Part shown: in pieces, positions 100 through 8,618 of the stretch | Position numbering within the stretch: position 1 is the first letter of the stretch | Layout of the letters: every line of letters starts with the position of its first letter | From: Escherichia coli | GTDB taxonomy: Bacteria > Pseudomonadota > Gammaproteobacteria > Enterobacterales > Enterobacteriaceae | Reading direction: 5' to 3' (one strand) | NCBI RefSeq assembly: GCF_003334385.1 | Contig: NZ_QOWN01000071.1 | Length of the DNA: 8,756 nucleotides | Notes under the pieces: generated by a model | What the model was told of the DNA's origin: nothing | Seen by the model: the letters and a program-made list of their open reading frames with translations, nothing else | Databases searched by the model: none | Position numbers and translations under genes: made by a program

Positions 100-876
100 T
101 CATTTCCGGATTTTCGCCAGTGCATCCGCCATGCTGCGGATTTCATCCCGTGCCTCCAGAACAACCTCCCGCAGAATATCCCGGTCAAACCAGCGACGGG
201 ACGGTTCATCCGGTATACGCAGCACATCACAGACCAGACCACTGGCCAGGATATGCTCAATACAATCGCTGACCAGGTACATTTCCACCGACGAAAAACG
301 TGCTCCCCGGTTCACGATGGCATCGAGCACCACGGGCAGATTTTCGTCATCTTCATCAAGCCAGCAGGGGTAATCGCTTTCCTTCACAACCAGACGAAAG
401 CGGCGCGTCTGGCGGGTCAGCAACGTCTGACCGGTGGTGGTCAACGCCGCACGGATACGCCGCGCATCTTCTGCCACCCGGCAACTGACACTGCATACTG
501 CATCGCGCACCGCATCAAAAACCGCCCTGATTTCTTCCTCCGTCAGCCATTCACCGGCATACGGGAAAGACACCTGCGTTCCGTCTGCCGGAAGTACCGG
601 CAGCGACTGCCACTGACTGCCGGACAGTACAACTTCCGCCCCGGTTCCGGTCAGTTTCTGAATGGCGGAGGCCAGGTGCGGCGGCAGCACGCCATCGTGG
701 CGGTTAACGAGTAACGTCGCCAGCCGGGGCGCATCCAGCAGAACATAAATGCTGATCCAGCCCGGATACTTCGGGTTACGCTGGTCAACATCCGTCTCTT
801 CCGGCCAGCCCTGCGCCAGCAGCAGGTTGCGGGCGTGACGACAAATCAGTGCGTTCAGCGTTGTGTTTTCGTTCAT
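100..876 (-). CDS. Hypothetical protein (258 aa), last gene of the methyltransferase-led operon
   Basis: Long ORF on the minus strand. The reverse complement of 877-895 gives ttcaGGGAGAacgattaat immediately before the ATG, a Shine-Dalgarno-like GGGAGA. It follows the three upstream minus-strand genes with short gaps. I do not recognise a family; function unknown. Confidence 0.7.
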
Positions 877-921
877 GATTAATCGTTCTCCCTGAATCGC
901 CGCCCGGAGGCGGCGATAACA

Positions 922-1356
922 TCAGTCGTTTTCGTGTCTGTTGTTTTTCAGCAGGGTGCGGGCCTGATTAATCACCGCCTGACGGCGGGTGACGCATTCC
1001 GGGACGGCGAGGCCATAATCCCGGGCGGCCCATTCACGTTTCCACAATGCCTGTTCAGCGGTCTGAATCAGGGACGTCAGCAGTTCAGCAGGGACGGTCA
1101 CCTGGCGGTTTTCTCTCACGTTATTGATGATCTCCATCGCCACGCCGGAAGAAATACCGGATTCAGTCCGCTGGTCTTCCGGGATGTCCTCCAGGCGCGC
1201 CAGGACGGTTCTGATTTCATGATCGGACAGAGAAATATCCATTCCGTCAGCGAGGGCCTGAATCTCTTCCGGGGACCAGATAACCAGCATCAGCGGCGTG
1301 TCTCCCGGATACTTTGCTGCCAGCGCCCGGCATAGCGTTTCGCATGTTCCGTACAT
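922..1356 (-). CDS. Hypothetical protein (144 aa), third gene of the methyltransferase-led operon
   Basis: ORF with a strong RBS: the reverse complement upstream of the ATG reads gattgAGAAGGAGAcgaga-ATG. It sits 13 bp downstream of the preceding minus-strand gene. No family recognised from the sequence alone. Confidence 0.7.
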   Translation of the reverse strand: MYGTCETLCRALAAKYPGDTPLMLVIWSPEEIQALADGMDISLSDHEIRTVLARLEDIPEDQRTESGISSGVAMEIINNVRENRQVTVPAELLTSLIQTAEQALWKREWAARDYGLAVPECVTRRQAVINQARTLLKNNRHEND

Positions 1357-1369
1357 TCTCGTCTCCTTC

Positions 1370-1591
1370 TCAATCTTTGAAGCAGGAATCCAGTTCCAGA
1401 ATTTCGGTATACGCCTCCATGAACAGGCGATTGGCGCGATACAGCGTCTGGCGTGTCAGGCGTTCAACAAGCACATCGGAATCAAAGCGACAGCGATGCT
1501 CCATATCGTTCAGCCTGGCCCGAAGGTCACACATGGTGTTGGCCACCTCCGCCACGTCGGCGCGAAGTTTTTCGTGTCCGGCATAGTTCAT
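1370..1591 (-). CDS. Hypothetical small protein (73 aa), translationally coupled to the methyltransferase gene
   Basis: Its ATG directly abuts the methyltransferase stop (minus strand reads ...TAA-ATG). GGAGG lies 8 nt upstream of the ATG, inside the methyltransferase 3' end. Small size makes the call less certain. Confidence 0.6.
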   Translation of the reverse strand: MNYAGHEKLRADVAEVANTMCDLRARLNDMEHRCRFDSDVLVERLTRQTLYRANRLFMEAYTEILELDSCFKD

Positions 1592-2275
1592 TTACGCAGC
1601 CTCCGGTTCAAACCAGTTATCATTCGCGGCCCCCTGCTGCATGGCCCGTTGCACGGCGGCCAGTCGTTGCTGTCCGGCACGGTGATACTGTTCAAGCAGC
1701 TCGATACCGATATACCGGCGTCCGGACTGAAGGGCGGCCACGCAGGTTGAGCCGCTGCCTGCAAACGGGTCCAGCACAATCGCGTTCGGATGTGTGAAGC
1801 TCTCAATCAGCGGTTGCAGGCTGGTAACGGGCTTTTCCGTCGGGTGATGACGATTGCCTGAATATTTCCAGCCCAGCACATCCGGCAGAGGGTTACGGGG
1901 CCGGGCCGGACTGCCCTTTGCCAGGATGTAAGCGCATTCGTGGCGGTACGCGACATACGCAGATTTGGATGTGTAGTTTTTGGTGAACACGAGGTGCCCT
2001 GCCACGCTGAATCCGGCGCGTTTCCAGGCCGCCATAAAGCGGTCAATACGGTGCCAGCCGTAGAAGCTGACCATCAGCGCGTCTTTTTTGAGTACGCGGT
2101 ACATTTCATTACAGGCCGGTTGCAGCCATTCATCGGTTTTATCGCCAGCGATGGTGCGCCCGAAACGGTCACGAAAACCGACGAGGTACGGCGGGTCAGT
2201 CAGTATGAAATCAATGGCGTTATCAGGAATACGGGCCATAACATCGATGCAGTTACCGAGGACAAAACGGGACAT
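1592..2275 (-). CDS. Orphan DNA methyltransferase, N6-adenine/N4-cytosine beta-class (227 aa)
   Basis: The translation contains DPPY near the N-terminus (ILTDPPYLVGF) followed later by an FxGxG AdoMet-binding motif (VLDPFAGSGST) and HPTEKP. This motif order is typical of beta-class amino-methyltransferases. RBS AGGAG lies upstream of the ATG (reverse complement of 2276-2290 is agaAGGAGcgttgtt). No restriction endonuclease partner is adjacent. Confidence 0.85.
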   Translation of the reverse strand: MSRFVLGNCIDVMARIPDNAIDFILTDPPYLVGFRDRFGRTIAGDKTDEWLQPACNEMYRVLKKDALMVSFYGWHRIDRFMAAWKRAGFSVAGHLVFTKNYTSKSAYVAYRHECAYILAKGSPARPRNPLPDVLGWKYSGNRHHPTEKPVTSLQPLIESFTHPNAIVLDPFAGSGSTCVAALQSGRRYIGIELLEQYHRAGQQRLAAVQRAMQQGAANDNWFEPEAA

Positions 2276-2620
2276 AACAACGCTCCTTCTCTTACAGAGG
2301 ACACCAGGAGGGCACCCCTGTGGTGCCCGTTCCCCGCTGCCTGTGGGCTGTTCACCGCGTCCGGTAACGGGTCAGGCCGACCGTGGAATACCGCAGCAGC
2401 CGTCGTCTTTCTGACGGCAAGGCTATGCCGCGAAAGCGGCTTGAAGGGCGTTCATCAGAAAAGGGCTCCTGGCTGGCGTACACTGGCACCGACGCCAGCC
2501 AGGAGCGGTAAAAGCGCCCGTCCCGTGCCTGATCGGACGCGGGACACTGACCACAGGCAGCGTTCCTGCCGCGCCGCGTCAGCCGGCGCAGTAAAAAGAG
2601 GAGCCCGGCGACATCCTTTG
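2276..2620 (-). promoter_or_regulatory. GC-rich, hairpin-dense non-coding leader upstream of the methyltransferase operon (possible promoter or single-strand promoter-like element)
   Basis: No credible ORF with an RBS. Inverted repeats read directly: perfect 15-bp stem gctcctggctggcgt (2465-2479) with acgccagccaggagc (2492-2506) and a 12-nt loop; GGGCACC (2310-2316) with GGTGCCC (2322-2328); GCCGTC (2399-2404) with GACGGC (2413-2418); gtcccg (2520-2525) with cgggac (2540-2545). The region lies between the parR terminator and the methyltransferase start. Confidence 0.45.
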
Positions 2621-2654
2621 TCGGAAAAGAAAAAAGGACGCAACAGCGTCCTTT
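2621..2654 (-). terminator. Rho-independent terminator downstream of the parR-like gene
   Basis: Stem AGGACGC (2635-2641) and GCGTCCT (2646-2652) with loop AACA. On the minus strand the hairpin is followed by a U-run (plus-strand A-run ggaaaagaaaaaa at 2621-2634). It sits 16 bp after the parR-like stop. Confidence 0.65.
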
Positions 2655-2669
2655 AACAGAGTTCAGTTC

Positions 2670-3098
2670 TTATTCATCATCCGGAAACAAGTTCTTAATG
2701 TTGTTTCTTGTTTCCAGGAGATTCTGATCGACTGGAGCAGATATTTCTTGCGTAGCAGAATCAACCGCAGGCAGGATCGTTTTTGCATTATTACCGGCAG
2801 ACTGCAGAAATGCCTCCAGCAAACGAACAACTTCACCATTTTCCTGTTGTGGTAGCGTACTACTGATAATTCGTTGAATATCCCGCATAGACGTGCTGTC
2901 TGTCAGGAATTCAGCTATCAGAAACGGCAATCGTTCATCCTGTTTCATCAATGCAGCACCACACAACATCATGGCCCGCATTGCCCGACCACGTTCTTTC
3001 TGAGGCAATTTTTCAAGAAACCTGTCAGCCACCCGATCAGCTGCATTTCGTTCCGGATAAATATAAAAAGAGCACTTACGATTATCAGCCATACTCAT
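2670..3098 (-). CDS. parR: ParR/StbB-like centromere-binding partition protein (142 aa)
   Basis: Small gene immediately downstream of the parM-like gene and overlapping it by 4 nt (ATGA). By recollection it resembles plasmid R1 ParR in its central part (...LPQKERGRAMRAMMLCGAALMKQDERLPFLIAEFLT...). An alternative start two codons in (3092) has better SD spacing. Confidence 0.65.
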   Translation of the reverse strand: MSMADNRKCSFYIYPERNAADRVADRFLEKLPQKERGRAMRAMMLCGAALMKQDERLPFLIAEFLTDSTSMRDIQRIISSTLPQQENGEVVRLLEAFLQSAGNNAKTILPAVDSATQEISAPVDQNLLETRNNIKNLFPDDE

Positions 3099-4075
3099 CC
3101 CTTCATTGCCATCATTCCCAACACCAGATCGAACTGAGGATTGTCACTGACAAAGAAACGGTTATCACCCACTCCTGTCGCTTTTTTTACTGCCCCAGCC
3201 ACAAGGCTGGCACCACCGCCAACAACCATAACATGAGTAAAACCAGCAAAGCGTCCTACTGAATCCGCCACACGATGCTGCAGTTTTTTTTCCCGGTCAC
3301 GTAATACTGTCAGGATCTGCTCACGCTGTTCTGCATTCGGGATATAACGAGTCAGGAATTCATTGTCATCCCGGCCCTGGATTAGACGATCTGCAAAATA
3401 AGAACTGGTTCGTGTACTCACATTCACATCCATCGCATGCTTAACTGCTTCAGTAATGATGGAAACGCCTGTCTTGGGGTCACAATAAGTTTTTGTGAAA
3501 CCGGACATTTTGCTGCGGACATGTGCAATATCAAGGGTCGTTCCACCGATATCAACGATCAACAGCGACTCCAGATCATTCAGATCTTTCAGCACGTCAA
3601 AACCGGCAGGCACGGACTCAGGCAAGACACTGACTTTACGAATGGTAAAGTTTTCACGCCCCTGAACTGTTACAGCTCGTCTGACATTATTTTTCTTACG
3701 TTCGATATTAGCCAGATTTGGCTGATCGTTCTCATCCAGATACTCACCTAAAGGTAAAGTCACAACAATATCAACAGGTTGCGGAGCAATACCTGACTGC
3801 ATCAACGCATGATGAATAGCAACCACATTAACGTCGCTGTACTGATAACGCGTTTCTGTGGTGCGCACTGCATCCGGACTCAATTGATCAAAGCTGTATT
3901 TCTCTCCATCAATCTCATAGTTTGCGGAAGCGGGTATAGTGGCATCAGTCAGTCCCTGCAGCGTCATAGACCATTCCGGTTTAAAACTATTCGGGCTAAT
4001 TAACGTTTTCACTGCACCGTCTTCAACCCAAGCCAGTTTGATGTTGGTAGAACCGTCATCTACAAAGATACGCAT
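3095..4075 (-). CDS. parM: ParM/StbA-like actin-family plasmid segregation ATPase
   Basis: The N-terminus MRIFVDDGSTNIKL, the phosphate-2-like LIVDIGGTTLDIAHV, and HVMVVGGGASLV match recalled ParM/StbA (R1/R100) motifs. I place the start at the ATG at 4075-4073, preceded by GTGAGGTTCTGG. The ORF track extends to a GTG at 4087 that overlaps that SD. Confidence 0.85.
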   Translation of the reverse strand: MRIFVDDGSTNIKLAWVEDGAVKTLISPNSFKPEWSMTLQGLTDATIPASANYEIDGEKYSFDQLSPDAVRTTETRYQYSDVNVVAIHHALMQSGIAPQPVDIVVTLPLGEYLDENDQPNLANIERKKNNVRRAVTVQGRENFTIRKVSVLPESVPAGFDVLKDLNDLESLLIVDIGGTTLDIAHVRSKMSGFTKTYCDPKTGVSIITEAVKHAMDVNVSTRTSSYFADRLIQGRDDNEFLTRYIPNAEQREQILTVLRDREKKLQHRVADSVGRFAGFTHVMVVGGGASLVAGAVKKATGVGDNRFFVSDNPQFDLVLGMMAMKG

Positions 4076-4087
4076 CCAGAACCTCAC

Positions 4088-4300
4088 AGAATAAAATGGA
4101 TTTTTTTAGAAAAATATGGTGTCGAAAAAGATTATCACCTAGAAACACGCATCAGTAAAGACCTGATATCGGCCACAAACAGAAAGATAAAGAAAAATAA
4201 AGACAAAAACCGACTCAAATAGCACACCAGGGAACAAACAAGAACAATAAAAGACAAATGCAGTTAAAATTCAGAAAAAAACTGAACAGGTGAACGGAGA
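4088..4300 (-). promoter_or_regulatory. AT-rich upstream region of the parMR-like operon (putative promoter and parC-like centromere)
   Basis: About 210 bp of A-rich non-coding sequence directly upstream of parM, where parC sits in known parMRC loci. Loose recurrences of aaagac/aaagat motifs are visible, but I could not delineate clear iterons by eye. Confidence 0.3.
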
Positions 4301-4664: not shown

Positions 4665-4964
4665 TCAAAGAATGAACCGGGGATTCTGACGCTGACCTAC
4701 AACCGCCAGGATATTGACACGACGGGCCTTATCATTCACTTCATAAAGTACATGCTGCCCAAGTAAGCTAATACGACGAACCCCTTCGCCATAGCGTTCA
4801 TCAGTTTCATACAGCCGAGGGTAATCAGCCAGGCGATCGGTTGCAGTGATCAGACGCTCTGTCACGTTCCTTGCATCCCAAAGAGATGCATTCTCAGCCA
4901 GATATTCAAACAGCGCAGTTATATCTTCAATTGCACCTGGTCGCCATTCTATTTCATAACTCAT
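4665..4964 (-). CDS. RelE/ParE-superfamily toxin of a type II toxin-antitoxin module (99 aa)
   Basis: About 100-aa protein whose start overlaps the upstream small gene by 11 nt. The sequence pattern (YEIEWRPGAIEDI..., ...RRVNILAVVGQRQN) is consistent with RelE/ParE-fold toxins as I recall them. Confidence 0.7.
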   Translation of the reverse strand: MSYEIEWRPGAIEDITALFEYLAENASLWDARNVTERLITATDRLADYPRLYETDERYGEGVRRISLLGQHVLYEVNDKARRVNILAVVGQRQNPRFIL

Positions 4965-5217
4965 TGCGCAGTTCCTGATAACGTCCCTGTAGTTGCTGGC
5001 GCAGTTGCGCGGAACTCATTCCCGGCCGCTTATCGGCGCGAGCAGCGGCAACTTTCGCTCGTATCTGTTCGTCGTATTCTGCCCGTGCCAGTTCTTCATT
5101 AGCAAGGCGTTGCAATAGTGCAGACTTGTCTGTACTGCCTTCTGGAAAAATACGAGGCAGGCTTTCGGCCAGCTCGCGCAGGAAATTGGCGTTTTCGTAA
5201 TGTGTGGTGCTATTCAT
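4954..5217 (-). CDS. Putative antitoxin of the RelE/ParE-type module (87 aa from the second ATG)
   Basis: Small ORF upstream of and overlapping the toxin gene (antitoxin-first order). I prefer the second ATG at 5217 because the minus strand reads ATGAAGGGGGAGTCAACT-ATG, which places a GGGGGAG SD about 7 nt before it. The ORF track starts at 5235. Antitoxin family uncertain. Confidence 0.6.
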   Translation of the reverse strand: MNSTTHYENANFLRELAESLPRIFPEGSTDKSALLQRLANEELARAEYDEQIRAKVAAARADKRPGMSSAQLRQQLQGRYQELRNEL

Positions 5218-5291
5218 AGTTGACTCCCCCTTCATTTAATAAAGAGCAATTACAGGTTTTTTGATGTCGTACGCATGGGTATAACGAGTCA

Positions 5292-5305: not shown

Positions 5306-5619
5306 ACTCCGATGATATTGTTTCACAGGCAGGCGATAACCGGAAAATAATGCTCATTTACCTGGCAATCTGCGTGTTGTCAGGTTTTATACAGAGTATA
5401 TAACCTTTCAGACACAGCCACCAACATATGCCGCGTCAGCGGCATGGAAGGCGGTACTCTGTGGTTACATGCGGCACAAGTGTAAAACCGCCGAAGCCCG
5501 GCGTAAGCCGGTACTGATTGACAGGTTTCACCTTACCCACCCCCGGCCCTGCCAGACAGTGGGGGCTTAAAGGGGTAGTGTGACATCCTGACAGCAACTG
5601 AAAGCAAAATGTAAACACA

Positions 5620-5812
5620 ATATTAATTTTTGTAAAAAAGCAATAACTATACAAACATAACTAACTGATATTACTATTAAATATTTAACAGGCGTACAAA
5701 TTTAGTTCAAATTATCATTGCAAAATATAGTTAATTACAGCAAGTAACTAGTGTTGGCCAACATACTATTCAGATGTCATAAGCATTAATTTCCCTTAAA
5801 AAAGGAGTCCTT
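5620..5812 (+). promoter_or_regulatory. AT-rich promoter and leader region of the microcin B17 operon
   Basis: Strongly AT-rich tract directly upstream of mcbA. Candidate -10-like hexamers are TATAGT (5726-5731) and TCATAA (5777-5782), the latter with TTGGCC (5754-5759) 17 bp upstream. mcbA RBS AGGAG is at 5803-5807, 5 nt before the ATG. Exact promoter not mapped. Confidence 0.4.
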
Positions 5813-6010
5813 ATGGAATTAAAAGCGAGTGAATTTGGTGTAGTTTTGTCCGTTGATGCTCTTAAATTATCACGCCAGTCTCCATTAGGTGTTGGCATTG
5901 GTGGTGGTGGCGGCGGTAGCTGCGGTGGTCAAGGTGGCGGTTGTGGTGGTTGCAGCAACGGTTGTAGTGGTGGAAACGGTGGCAGCGGCGGAAGTGGTTC
6001 ACATATCTGA
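5813..6010 (+). CDS. mcbA: Microcin B17 precursor peptide McbA, variant with a shortened poly-Gly linker (65 aa)
   Basis: The translation MELKASEFGVVLSVDALKLSRQSPLG-VGIGGGGGG-SCGGQGGGCGGCSNGCSGGNGGSGGSGSHI matches the microcin B17 leader and core as I recall them, including the Gly-Ser-Cys and Gly-Cys-Ser heterocyclisation sites. Only 6 Gly codons (5900-5917) follow VGI. Confidence 0.95.
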   Translation: MELKASEFGVVLSVDALKLSRQSPLGVGIGGGGGGSCGGQGGGCGGCSNGCSGGNGGSGGSGSHI

Positions 6011-6027
6011 TACGTTGAATTAACCGT

Positions 6028-6050
6028 TCAGGGAGCATGGTGCTCCCTGA
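6028..6050 (+). promoter_or_regulatory. Perfect stem-loop between mcbA and mcbB (10-bp stem, 3-nt loop)
   Basis: tCAGGGAGCA (6028-6037), loop TGG, TGCTCCCTGa (6041-6050), verified base by base. It starts 18 nt after the mcbA stop and encloses the first in-frame ATG of the mcbB ORF (6037). It is not followed by a U-tract. Confidence 0.5.
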
Positions 6051-6924
6051 TATTAAAAAAGGAAAAGATATGATCAATATTCTGCCATTTGAGATAATTT
6101 CCAGAAATACAAAGACCCTGCTTATTACCTACATTTCTTCAGTAGACATTACACATGAGGGAATGAAAAAAGTACTCGAAAGCCTACGATCCAAACAGGG
6201 TATTATTTCTGAATACCTCCTTGATAAACTACTGGACGAATCGCTTATTGATAAAGACAAGGGCAAAGAGTTTCTTATTACCACAGGCGTGATAAATAAA
6301 ACGAAAACATCACCTCTCTGGGTAAACTCAGTCATAATAAGCGATGTTCCACATCTTTTCAGTAATGCCCGGGAACAATGGAAATCTGATGGTGTTTTTG
6401 TTTCTCATATCATTGATATAAAAGATAATAATATTAATGTGAGCGATTCAACACTAATCTGGTTACATCTCGAAAACTATCATTCAGACATTGTAAAAAG
6501 AATCTATTCAAAATTTGAAAGTAACCCTGGTGTTGCCTTCATCCAAAGCTACTACCTAAAGGAGTCATTCAGGATAGATGGAGTATATTCACCTGATCTT
6601 GGTACTCCCTGCCATTTTTGTCATATAGAGAGATGGCTGAGCAGGGAAGAAAAAAGCTTCAGACGTAACGAAATGTCCTGGGCAAATTTACTTCAGTTAC
6701 TGAAAAAATACTAAATGACACTACCAGCATTGGCTTTAGGCGAGTCAGAAAGAGGATTCAGCTATCATTTAATAAAACGGCGACTTCAGGAGTTGACAGG
6801 TACTTCACTGGTTAAAAGTCATGTCGATAGCTTTATGTCATCTGTTAGCGCTGATTTAATCACCTGTATTTTATGTAAAGAGCCGGTAATTCACTGGCAG
6901 GCTTGCAGCTGTCTGGAGAGATAA
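6037..6924 (+). pseudogene. mcbB: mcbB (microcin B17 synthetase zinc-binding scaffold subunit) interrupted by an in-frame TAA at 6712-6714
   Basis: The 225-aa ORF 6037-6714 and the 69-aa ORF 6715-6924 are in the same frame, separated only by TAA. Together they give 225+1+69 = 295 codons, which is the McbB length I recall. CHFCH lies in the N-terminal part and CILC...CSC in the C-terminal part. An RBS-supported alternative start is the ATG at 6070 (AGGA at 6060-6063). Confidence 0.8.
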
Positions 6925-6925
6925 C

Positions 6926-7744
6926 ATGTCAAAACACGAACTCTCTTTAGTGGAAGTAACGCATTACACAGATCCTGAAGTTCTGGCCATTGTTAAAGAT
7001 TTTCATGTCAGAGGTAACTTTGCTTCCCTCCCCGAATTTGCTGAACGAACTTTCGTGTCCGCGGTACCTCTTGCCCATCTGGAGAAATTTGAAAATAAAG
7101 AAGTTCTCTTCAGGCCAGGTTTCAGCTCCGTAATAAACATATCCTCATCACATAATTTTAGTCGTGAAAGGCTCCCATCAGGAATAAACTTTTGCGACAA
7201 AAATAAACTTTCCATTCGTACTATTGAAAAGTTATTAGTCAATGCATTCAGCTCACCTGATCCTAGCTCTGTAAGAAGACCTTATCCTTCTGGGGGGGCA
7301 TTGTGCCCGATTGAAGTTTTTTTATGCAGATTATCTGAAAATACAGAAAACTGGCAGTCAGGAACTAATGTTTATCACTACCTGCCGCTAAGTCAGGCAC
7401 TGGAACCTGTTGCTACATGTAATACTCAGTCACTCTACCGAAGCCTGTCCGGTGGGGATTCGGAACGTCTTGGTAAACCCCATTTTGCTCTCGTCTATTG
7501 CATTATTTTTGAAAAAGCTTTGTTCAAATATCGCTACAGAGGATACCGGATGGCCTTAATGGAAACAGGTTCGATGTATCAGAACGCAGTATTGGTTGCA
7601 GATCAAATAGGACTGAAAAACCGGGTATGGGCGGGATATACCGATTCATACGTAGCAAAAACAATGAATCTGGATCAGAGGACTGTAGCGCCACTGATCG
7701 TTCAGTTTTTTGGAGATGTAAACGATGATAAATGTCTACAGTAA
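6926..7744 (+). CDS. mcbC: McbC, FMN-dependent dehydrogenase of microcin B17 synthetase (272 aa)
   Basis: 272-aa ORF, matching the McbC length I recall. It starts 1 nt after the mcbB stop, with GGAGAG 7 nt upstream, and contains a nitroreductase-like RPYPSGGALCPIE region. The gene order follows the known mcb operon. Confidence 0.93.
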   Translation: MSKHELSLVEVTHYTDPEVLAIVKDFHVRGNFASLPEFAERTFVSAVPLAHLEKFENKEVLFRPGFSSVINISSSHNFSRERLPSGINFCDKNKLSIRTIEKLLVNAFSSPDPSSVRRPYPSGGALCPIEVFLCRLSENTENWQSGTNVYHYLPLSQALEPVATCNTQSLYRSLSGGDSERLGKPHFALVYCIIFEKALFKYRYRGYRMALMETGSMYQNAVLVADQIGLKNRVWAGYTDSYVAKTMNLDQRTVAPLIVQFFGDVNDDKCLQ

Positions 7745-8618
7745 CCTTATGTCCGCATGGCCGGCCACAATGGCCATGAGTCCAAAACTGAACAGAAATA
7801 TGCCAACGTTTTCTCAGATATGGGACTATGAGCGTATTACACCAGCCAGCGCGGCCGGTGAAACTCTGAAGTCAATTCAGGGGGCAATAGGTGAATATTT
7901 TGAACGCCGTCATTTTTTTAATGAGATAGTCACCGGTGGTCAGAAAACATTATATGAGATGATGCCTCCATCTGCTGCAAAGGCTTTTACCGAAGCATTT
8001 TTTCAGATCTCATCACTGACCCGCGATGAAATCATAACCCATAAATTTAAAACGGTCAGAGCCTTTAATCTGTTTAGCCTTGAACAACAAGAAATACCTG
8101 CAGTCATAATTGCACTCGACAATATAACCGCTGCAGATGATCTGAAATTTTATCCTGACAGAGATACATGCGGATGTAGCTTTCATGGTAGTTTGAACGA
8201 TGCCATAGAAGGTTCCTTGTGTGAATTTATGGAGAGACAGTCCCTCCTTCTTTACTGGTTACAGGGAAAAGCCAATACTGAAATATCCAGTGAAATAGTA
8301 ACAGGCATAAATCATATTGATGAGATTTTACTGGCTCTCAGGTCAGAAGGAGATATCAGGATTTTCGATATCACCCTGCCCGGAGCTCCTGGACACGCAG
8401 TACTAACCCTGTATGGCACAAAAAACAAAATCAGTCGAATAAAATACAGTACCGGATTATCCTATGCTAATAGTCTGAAAAAAGCACTTTGTAAATCCGT
8501 AGTGGAATTGTGGCAATCGTATATATGCCTGCACAACTTTCTTATTGGCGGTTATACTGATGATGACATTATTGATAGTTACCAGCGTCACTTTATGTCA
8601 TGCAACAAGTACGGGTAA
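7725..8618 (+). pseudogene. mcbD: mcbD (YcaO-type cyclodehydratase of microcin B17 synthetase) truncated by an IS1-family insertion
   Basis: The ORF starts MINVYSNLMSAW... and overlaps the mcbC end by 20 nt. It runs 296 mcbD codons and then ends in G-stop, where the codons are supplied by the IS1 terminal repeat (GG-TAA-TG). McbD is about 396 aa by recollection, so roughly the C-terminal 100 residues are missing. Confidence 0.88.

Follow-up and report, generated by a model that had tools for sequence, protein, structure and literature searches.

A probable copy of the class 3 single-stranded DNA promoter upstream of a methylase operon on an IncF-type plasmid of Escherichia coli

The window, as the whole analysed stretch of 8,756 nucleotides from Escherichia coli is called here, is a piece of an IncF-type plasmid. 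On its minus strand lie a parM/parR operon and an operon headed by a DNA methylase gene of the M.EcoGIX family, with a spacer between them that is the GC-richest part of the window (GC 0.65 versus about 0.45-0.58 in the flanks). The preliminary description had called 2276-2620 GC-rich and non-coding, and the GC content of 0.65 and the lack of a conserved open reading frame (ORF) were in agreement with this. The genes and main features of the locus were the following (window coordinates, strand, feature).

100-1591, minus strand: remaining genes of the methylase operon, in the same order as in F and pESBL
100-876, minus strand: 258-aa gene of the methylase operon
922-1356, minus strand: DUF1380 gene of the methylase operon
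1370-1591, minus strand: YubE-like gene, 73 aa, of the methylase operon
1592-2275, minus strand: M.EcoGIX-family DNA methyltransferase, 227 aa (NCBIfam PRK13699, 490 bits)
2282-2287, plus strand, as template of the minus-strand gene: Shine-Dalgarno template of the methylase
2276-2632, plus strand: probable class 3 single-stranded DNA (ssDNA) promoter (ssp3) homologue at its full extent, from homology to pESBL and F and from the fold
2295-2621, plus strand: portable core module, since a duplicate in CP088657.1 spans exactly these positions
2633-2654, minus strand: intrinsic terminator of the parM/parR operon, outside the element; homology to pESBL stops at 2632
2670-3098, minus strand: parR/stbB, between parM and the terminator
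3095-4087, minus strand: parM, the neighbour on the far side of the spacer

Positions 2276-2632 were 95.2% identical in nucleotides, over 357 nt, to positions 54429-54781 of pESBL-EA11 (NC_018659), and 92.4% identical to positions 53813-54166 of F; both of these matching segments abut the methylase start. A first query gave 89.6% identity to the F segment upstream of the methylase, and in a blastn search of the F leading region nothing matched but the stretch that immediately precedes the methylase. Among the reference ssDNA promoters compared, the window element matched only the one upstream of M.EcoGIX. The element occurred at 90-97% identity in 5000 or more plasmids from Escherichia, Klebsiella, Salmonella and Shigella, and the window methylase was 98.7% identical in amino acids to that of pESBL-EA11.

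The pESBL element has been described before. In Wen et al. (NAR 2025, PMC12672017), transcription of pESBL-EA11 in fresh transconjugants revealed six induced operons, a large hairpin was predicted upstream of each, and all six start sites were mapped by 5'RACE, which 'matched the predictions'; the hairpin upstream of M.EcoGIX was named the class 3 ssDNA promoter, and classes 2 and 3 were reported as conserved in F. The F copy is the ssp3 of a 2026 preprint (Fraikin et al., bioRxiv 10.64898/2026.01.09.698686), in which ssp3 could take the place of ssp2 and served as a portable promoter, as strong as ssp2 but lacking roadblock activity. M.EcoGIX itself, a methylase directed at ssDNA, is silent in donors, and the protection it gave to pESBL was lost when oriT was inverted (Fomenkov et al., PMC7736820). 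On pESBL its gene is not expressed in donors, and in fresh transconjugants its induction reaches up to hundreds-fold (PMC12672017, PMC7736820).

Because the 95.2% match to pESBL ends at the start codon and the methylases are 98.7% identical, we regard window positions 2276-2632 as a copy, or orthologue, of the class 3 ssDNA promoter that occurs in the leading regions of IncF and IncI1 plasmids, with a probability of about 0.9. Every testable feature of class 3/ssp3 was found in the window element, namely the homology, the position next to the methylase, the role of the folding strand as template and transferred strand, and the large stem-loop, with the transfer strand of the window plasmid resting on synteny, as oriT lies beyond the window. 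The element shares with the pESBL and F copies its place at the methylase start, the operon downstream, the strand logic and a GC-rich large stem-loop. It differs from them in a 3-nt insertion at 2394-2396, in its upstream neighbour (parMR in the window, DUF1281 for the pESBL and F copies), and in the stem of hairpin H10, which is a perfect 15 bp in the window copy and mismatched in other class 3 copies. The preliminary description had read the region as a structured, leading-region single-strand promoter for early methyltransferase expression, and the homologous pESBL element has been shown to be one. The identity of the element as a single-strand promoter is thus already published, and the window case is a rediscovery.

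Folded as ssDNA, the plus strand of 2276-2662 reached -114.4 kcal/mol, compared with -74.2 ± 4.6 kcal/mol for dinucleotide shuffles (z = -8.8; 0 of 100 shuffles equally good). The same fold of the minus strand gave z = -8.0. The perfect 15-bp inverted repeat reported earlier at 2465-2479 with 2492-2506 was recovered; among 300 shuffles of 2276-2620, the longest perfect stem was 6-7 bp in most cases and 13 bp at most. A long-range inverted repeat (2335-2363 with 2534-2562; 29 nt, 83% complementary) had been missed by the preliminary description, and in the predicted fold it closes the whole element into a single large branched hairpin.

Homologues of the methylase at 76-85% amino-acid identity, together with their upstream DNA, were collected from Edwardsiella, Pectobacterium, Serratia, Atlantibacter, Klebsiella-type and metagenomic contigs. 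Of the 12 homologue loci, 9 had a recognisable class 3 element, with one 89% identical to the window and eight at 72-80%. An alignment of 20 transferred-strand sequences (72-97% identity, six genera) gave a consensus of 90 pairs with 97.2% of cells paired. Compensatory changes were seen in 22 pairs, against 12.2 ± 1.8 in column shuffles (0 of 500) and 1-4 when partners were slid by 1-3 columns, and they were concentrated in H1, P1, P2, H8 and H10. In single sequences the pair probability was 0.66-0.93 for H1, P1, P2 and H10, and 0.41 for H8. The preliminary description had treated stems without covariation as evidence against its reading, and these stems do covary.

Parts of the consensus structure are given below, all on the plus strand. 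Fractions refer to pairs with compensatory changes unless columns are named.

2307-2316 with 2322-2333, plus strand: hairpin H1, between the main stem and the Shine-Dalgarno template; 4/10 pairs, mean pair probability 0.75 (20 sequences)
2335-2346 (5', template arm) with 2551-2562 (3', non-template arm), plus strand: outer stem P1; 6/12 pairs, pair probability 0.93
2347-2354, plus strand: template side of the internal loop; C2348, T2349, G2350 and T2351 invariant
2355-2365 with 2532-2542, plus strand: stem P2, a proposed promoter spacer duplex; 4/11 pairs, pair probability 0.93
2367-2392, plus strand: near-invariant block AACGGGTCAGGCCGACCGTGGAATACC, the 5' strands of H5, H6 and H7; 23/26 columns invariant
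2399-2418, plus strand: hairpin H8, apex of the long stem; 2/5 pairs
2421-2450, plus strand: near-invariant block holding the 3' strands of H7 and H6 and CTTGAAGGGCG; 24/30 columns invariant
2465-2506, plus strand: hairpin H10, with conserved core 2471-2479 with 2492-2500; pair probability 0.66
2522-2526, plus strand: 3' strand of H5 (CCCGT), paired with 2367-2371; all five pairs invariant and uninformative for covariation
2543-2548, plus strand: proposed -10-like GACACT on the non-template arm, in the internal loop between P2 and P1; pattern [G/C]A[C/G/T]ACT
2597-2619, plus strand: 3'-flank hairpin H13 (AGAGGA with TCCTTT); one covarying pair, within motif GAGGAGCnnnGCGACAT

Two of the stems named in the preliminary description, at 2310-2328 and 2399-2418, were present within H1 and H8 respectively, and both carry compensatory changes in homologues. 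The third, at 2520-2545, exists as a palindrome, but its bases covary with their distant partner in P2. As a selected pairing this local palindrome was rejected, with 0 compensatory changes compared with four in the competing long-range P2. In the consensus structure T2349 lies opposite T2548, and the H10 loop begins with the invariant pattern T-A-n-A-n-T (TACACT, 2479-2484). The covarying pair in H13 is A-T in 12 sequences and T-A in 6; the motif GAGGAGCnnnGCGACAT around it was matched in 20 of the 25 fetched loci, once in each except for one locus with two matches.

Invariant columns made up 88% of 2367-2392 and 80% of 2421-2450, versus 17-56% elsewhere. Within the inner helices H5-H7 only two pairs covaried, pair 104-166 (C-G to T.G to T-A) and pair 117-150 (C-G to T-A), and the mean pair probability in single-sequence DNA folding was only about 0.2. 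For these two reasons the inner fold is less certain than the outer stems. When the consensus was projected onto single sequences, its energy lay well above each minimum free energy, and the modelled consensus is best read as a conserved skeleton rather than the full fold.

By blastn (word size 7) the window element showed no similarity to Frpo1 or Frpo2 beyond chance-level matches, the best being a 13-nt word with E of about 0.15-0.35, whereas Frpo1 and Frpo2 matched each other at 88.8%. Frpo1, Frpo2 and ssi1-3 are mutually about 89-92% identical. The earlier assignment to the 'Frpo/ssi type' does not hold at the sequence level, and the element belongs to a separate class; it acts like Frpo yet stands outside the Frpo family. 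With the class 1 elements (Frpo1 and Frpo2 of F, ssi1-3 of ColIb-P9) it has in common a leading-region hairpin on the transferred strand, built in imitation of a duplex promoter, and zygotic induction. It is branched, whereas class 1 elements form a single long hairpin; it lacks the AT-rich apical hairpin of Frpo1/2; and it precedes a methylase operon in place of the ssb-psiB or ygeA operons. The class 1 ssDNA promoters are reportedly the subject of work by Masai and Arai in 1997, Bates in 1999, Nasim in 2004 and Couturier in 2023.

Class 2 elements (ssp2 or 'Frpo3', upstream of klcA/ardB and of ardA) resemble the window element in being GC-rich long hairpins of the leading region. The 3'-flank motif GAGGAGCnnnGCGACAT (27-29 nt) is common to both, hairpin H1 also occurs in Erwinia class 2 copies, and class 2 likewise has a -10-like hexamer at an internal loop. 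No similarity in the core was found when the window element was compared with the hairpins 5' of klcA and ardA. The two classes also differ in that ssp2 acts as a replication roadblock and ssp3 does not (10.64898/2026.01.09.698686).

The main role of the element could be that of an ssi signal, its transcript or its structure priming complementary-strand synthesis, with expression secondary. Class 1 (Frpo) elements do both, according to Masai and Arai 1997 as cited in later papers, early conversion downstream of ssp1 is rifampicin-sensitive (Fraikin et al., 10.64898/2026.01.09.698686), and the conserved T-A-n-A-n-T of the H10 loop has no assigned role. We nevertheless consider a primarily priming function improbable, given that nothing reported on ssp3 hints at it (it was used simply as a promoter, equal in strength to ssp2 and devoid of roadblock activity) and that homologues do not conserve the CTG of the H10 loop; priming would in any case be an extra role, not one that excludes a single-strand promoter.

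By gene orientation the plus strand is the methylase template. In F, in pESBL and in the closest relatives of the window the methylase is oriented as klcA, ssb and psiB are, all towards oriT. The F nic-site sequence, to which TraI binds on the nicked strand, is found on the minus strand of NC_002483. This strand is the F methylase template, and its 3' direction leads into the leading region. We infer that the plus strand of the window is the transferred strand as well as the methylase template; for the window plasmid, the window holding no oriT, this follows from synteny with F. A transferred strand that served as non-template had been named beforehand as an outcome contrary to the proposal; the strand that folds is the template, and by F synteny and the nic site it is probably the one transferred.

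The energies were also asymmetric between the strands. In each of the 20 homologues the plus strand folded more stably than the complementary strand, the mean difference being 5 kcal/mol, and the consensus energy was -63.0 kcal/mol for the template strand versus -43.5 kcal/mol for the complement. Among the consensus pairs there were 113 G.T cells versus 8 A.C cells, an excess that is partly built in, as the consensus was predicted on the plus strand, and that was also present within the well-supported helices.

These data bear on whether the conserved structure acts in RNA, as a structured 5' leader with a role in stability, translation control or riboswitch-like regulation. Compensatory Watson-Crick changes are strand-symmetric, cannot separate the strands, and would equally keep complementary RNA helices; folding is strong on the minus strand too (z = -8.0), and H1, which is probably in the transcript, could act there. 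Against this, the mRNA-sense strand was the less stable in all 20 homologues, its consensus energy was 19.5 kcal/mol worse, and the wobble pairs fell on the template strand (113 G.T, 8 A.C). No Rfam family matched, the only covariance match being sub-threshold at 14.9 bits against a gathering score of 138. A start within the stem, as 5'RACE in the pESBL study implies, would leave most of the element untranscribed. A leader acting in RNA appears very unlikely to us. Because of the plus-strand stability and the G.T asymmetry, the strand asymmetry in these fold predictions favours folded transferred DNA over a structured mRNA leader.

The region could also be an ordinary duplex promoter or operator region in which the hairpins are incidental, or are terminators or insulators. 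It does lie between two operons, and a genuine terminator abuts the element. A standard sigma-70 scan, however, gave no credible box pair, and in looser scans of both strands no -35/-10 pair with at least 7 of 12 matches plus A2 and T6 was found on the sense strand, and no linear sigma-70 box pair was found on the 3' arm of the folded strand. A conventional sigma-70 promoter, named in the preliminary description as the simpler source of expression, has no consensus on either strand. In addition, the long-range stems covary, and the pESBL gene goes from silence in donors to an induction of up to hundreds-fold in new transconjugants. An ordinary duplex region is accordingly a highly improbable reading, and the absence of a sense-strand box pair fits a gene that is silent from duplex DNA.

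The poorest case is that for a protein of roughly 100 aa, annotated as a 'hypothetical protein' in RefSeq records (e.g. WP_001310011.1) and called as a CDS in the methylase direction in most of the fetched plasmid records, one of them lacking it: we give it almost no credence, since the ORF is not intact in the window (the longest minus-strand ORFs, which begin with GTG or TTG, have 43-62 aa), indels of 1 and 2 nt separate the homologues, 7 of the 9 divergent class 3 loci have no called gene there, the upstream gene called in two loci ends about 370 nt before the methylase start and at most overlaps the far end, and conservation follows helices, not codons. Being broken, indel-ridden and absent from most divergent contigs, this annotation is best treated as a spurious ORF.

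If the window element is a class 3 single-strand promoter, it would work as follows. Conjugation would bring the window plus strand into the recipient as ssDNA, and before complementary-strand synthesis this strand would fold into the large branched hairpin with P1 and P2 as its backbone. The 3' arm would then stand in as non-template strand to the 5' arm, from which the methylase template runs on without a break. Host RNA polymerase would start in the stem and transcribe leftwards through H1 and the Shine-Dalgarno sequence into the methylase operon. The resulting burst of anti-restriction methylase would end once complementary-strand synthesis had turned the hairpin into ordinary duplex.

The template has to run unbroken into the gene, and the surrogate non-template strand must thus lie 3' of its partner; by this continuity the 3' arm of P2/P1 is the only candidate for the non-template strand. 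When the class 1 arrangement of boxes was sought there, the 3' arm held no linear pair at 7/12 matches, and a loop -10-like element with a composite -35 could be drawn by inference. Class 2, in contrast, has a linear -35/-10 on its 3' arm (TTGTCT-15-TACGGT), and the class 2-like elements fetched had a clearer -10 (TACGGT or TACAGT) at the internal loop on that arm.

In class 3 the putative -10 would be GACACT at 2543-2548, in the conserved internal loop. Positions A2544, A2546, C2547 and T2548 were invariant, and A2544 and T2548 were unpaired in the consensus. The -11 and -7 positions matter most for sigma-70, and A2544 and T2548 would correspond to these. The duplex form at the -10 site reads TGAACA/AACAGC, so that T-7 is then present in the hairpin only, as a T.T mismatch with 2349. 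The candidate -35 is a composite, TTGA-CC, formed from 2441-2444 and 2522-2523 if H6 stacks on H5 along an uninterrupted template strand. It matches TTGACA at 5 of 6 positions, and GACACT matches TATAAT at 3 of 6; as hexamers the proposed boxes fit weakly. On the template strand 15 nt would separate the boxes, and the non-template strand would have 14 nt there and a bulge of 5 nt. Transcription is predicted to start opposite about 2340, giving a leader of about 65 nt that contains H1. 

The composite -35 relies on H5-H7, helices with a pair probability of about 0.2. A promoter built from a hairpin-only T-7 and a -35 whose two distant segments meet by coaxial stacking at a branch point, and erased on duplex formation, would be more than a hairpin version of a duplex promoter; it is a tentative proposal that we think will more probably prove wrong than right. 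If true, sigma-70 polymerase would be reading folded DNA in a structurally novel manner.

Other placements of the boxes were rejected. TTGAAG (2441) with TACACT (2479) would have a 32-nt spacing that is variable in homologues, and that orientation leaves the polymerase without a downstream template strand. If the -10 lay in the 12-nt H10 loop, non-template -10 and template +1 would have to be the same nucleotides. GTGCC[T/C] (2525-2530) as a -35 would leave a spacer of only 11-12 nt.

The element was found in varied company. The gene upstream of it varied (parMR, DUF1281, umuDC, parA/parG or hsdM) while its methylase companion was constant. On the IncF plasmid CP088657.1 the class 3 element occurs twice, before the methylase and before a DUF1281 gene, and the latter copy was 93.9% identical over 2295-2621. 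Erwinia contigs and one Salmonella contig had a class 2-like hairpin before the methylase instead. A scan of viral contigs gave no relatives of the methylase. The promoter classes are thus observed to be swapped and duplicated like cassettes. The comparative structure, the strand asymmetry, the occurrence in other Enterobacterales genera, the box model and this cassette behaviour may be additions to the published papers. The comparative structure, which separates parts conserved in sequence from parts conserved in pairing, may, like the strand-asymmetry test and the swapping and duplication of classes, help to dissect how RNA polymerase recognises class 3 elements, and may help annotation pipelines that now label the element as a hypothetical protein.

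In the first minutes after a plasmid enters by conjugation, single-strand promoters decide which of its genes are expressed; during this time the incoming DNA is still open to destruction by restriction, CRISPR and SOS responses. The class 3 element drives an ssDNA-specific methylase of broad specificity (M.EcoGIX type) that shields resistance plasmids from restriction in the recipient.

Class 3 of the single-stranded DNA promoters, to which the element at 2276-2632 of the window belongs, was found twice on one IncF plasmid (CP088657.1; locus L006), at 14464-14816 and at 15787-16110. The first of these copies is upstream of the methylase gene, and the second, which is upstream of a DUF1281 gene, is 93.9% identical over window positions 2295-2621. 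Their occurrence delimits a portable module. The two copies in L006 also account for the entry "2 places per record" in the element searches.

Within the 3' flank of the element, one motif was followed across the fetched loci:

2598-2614: GAGGAGCnnnGCGACAT

This motif was matched in 20 of the 25 loci, once per locus and twice in L006. It was also found in the class 2-like element of Erwinia amylovora (L017), and the ssp2 region of plasmid F contains a similar stretch. Possible partners of its AGGAG are a TCCTT close by or the Shine-Dalgarno template of the methylase (2282-2287). The loop of H10, the hairpin at 2465-2506, begins with an invariant T-A-n-A-n-T at 2479-2484, which is TACACT here and TAAACT or TAAAAT in other genera. 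TACACT has the look of a -10 hexamer, but the geometry rules it out as the -10 of the methylase promoter.

A 13-nt exact match to Frpo2 of F was observed at 2342-2354 (TGTGGGCTGTTCA on the + strand; E ~0.15). In Frpo2 this sequence is located on the opposite hairpin arm as compared to the window element, and the match is probably due to chance for this reason. A "hypothetical protein" of ~100 aa (e.g. WP_001310011.1) is called by annotation pipelines across the promoter (2276-2662 in the window) in the RefSeq homologue records, amounting to thousands of plasmids. The ORF is without conservation and is likely to be spurious.

Elsewhere in the window, the 4100-4300 stretch upstream of parM is strongly AT-rich and A-skewed, and is probably the parC centromere/promoter. 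A two-gene pair on the minus strand (4665-5235) encodes products of 93 and 99 aa, the former with a weak match to RelB-antitoxin. A further very AT-rich stretch (GC 0.25) occupies 5600-5800. A microcin B17-type operon was found at 5813-6010 and 6926-8618, with mcbB between them:

mcbA-like precursor, 65 aa, Gly/Ser/Cys-rich, with a run of only six Gly
6037-6924: mcbB, McbB family (microcin B17 synthetase)
mcbC, 272 aa, next in the operon
mcbD-like YcaO ORF, only 297 aa, ending at 8618

A premature in-frame stop at 6712-6714 (LLKKY-stop-MTLP, versus LLKKYQMTLP in a related plasmid) means that mcbB appears split into one ORF of 225 aa and another of 69 aa. Related plasmids are homologous only as far as 8616, approximately the end of the mcbD-like ORF.

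In two Erwinia loci (L017 and L021) and one Salmonella locus (L014), the methylase homologue has a class 2-like hairpin ~330 nt upstream of it rather than a class 3 element. Such hairpins carry TTGTCT-15-TACGGT or TTGCAT-15-TACAGT on the 3' arm, and they resemble those upstream of klcA/ardA in pESBL, as well as ssp2 of F. The operons appear to exchange promoter classes with one another.
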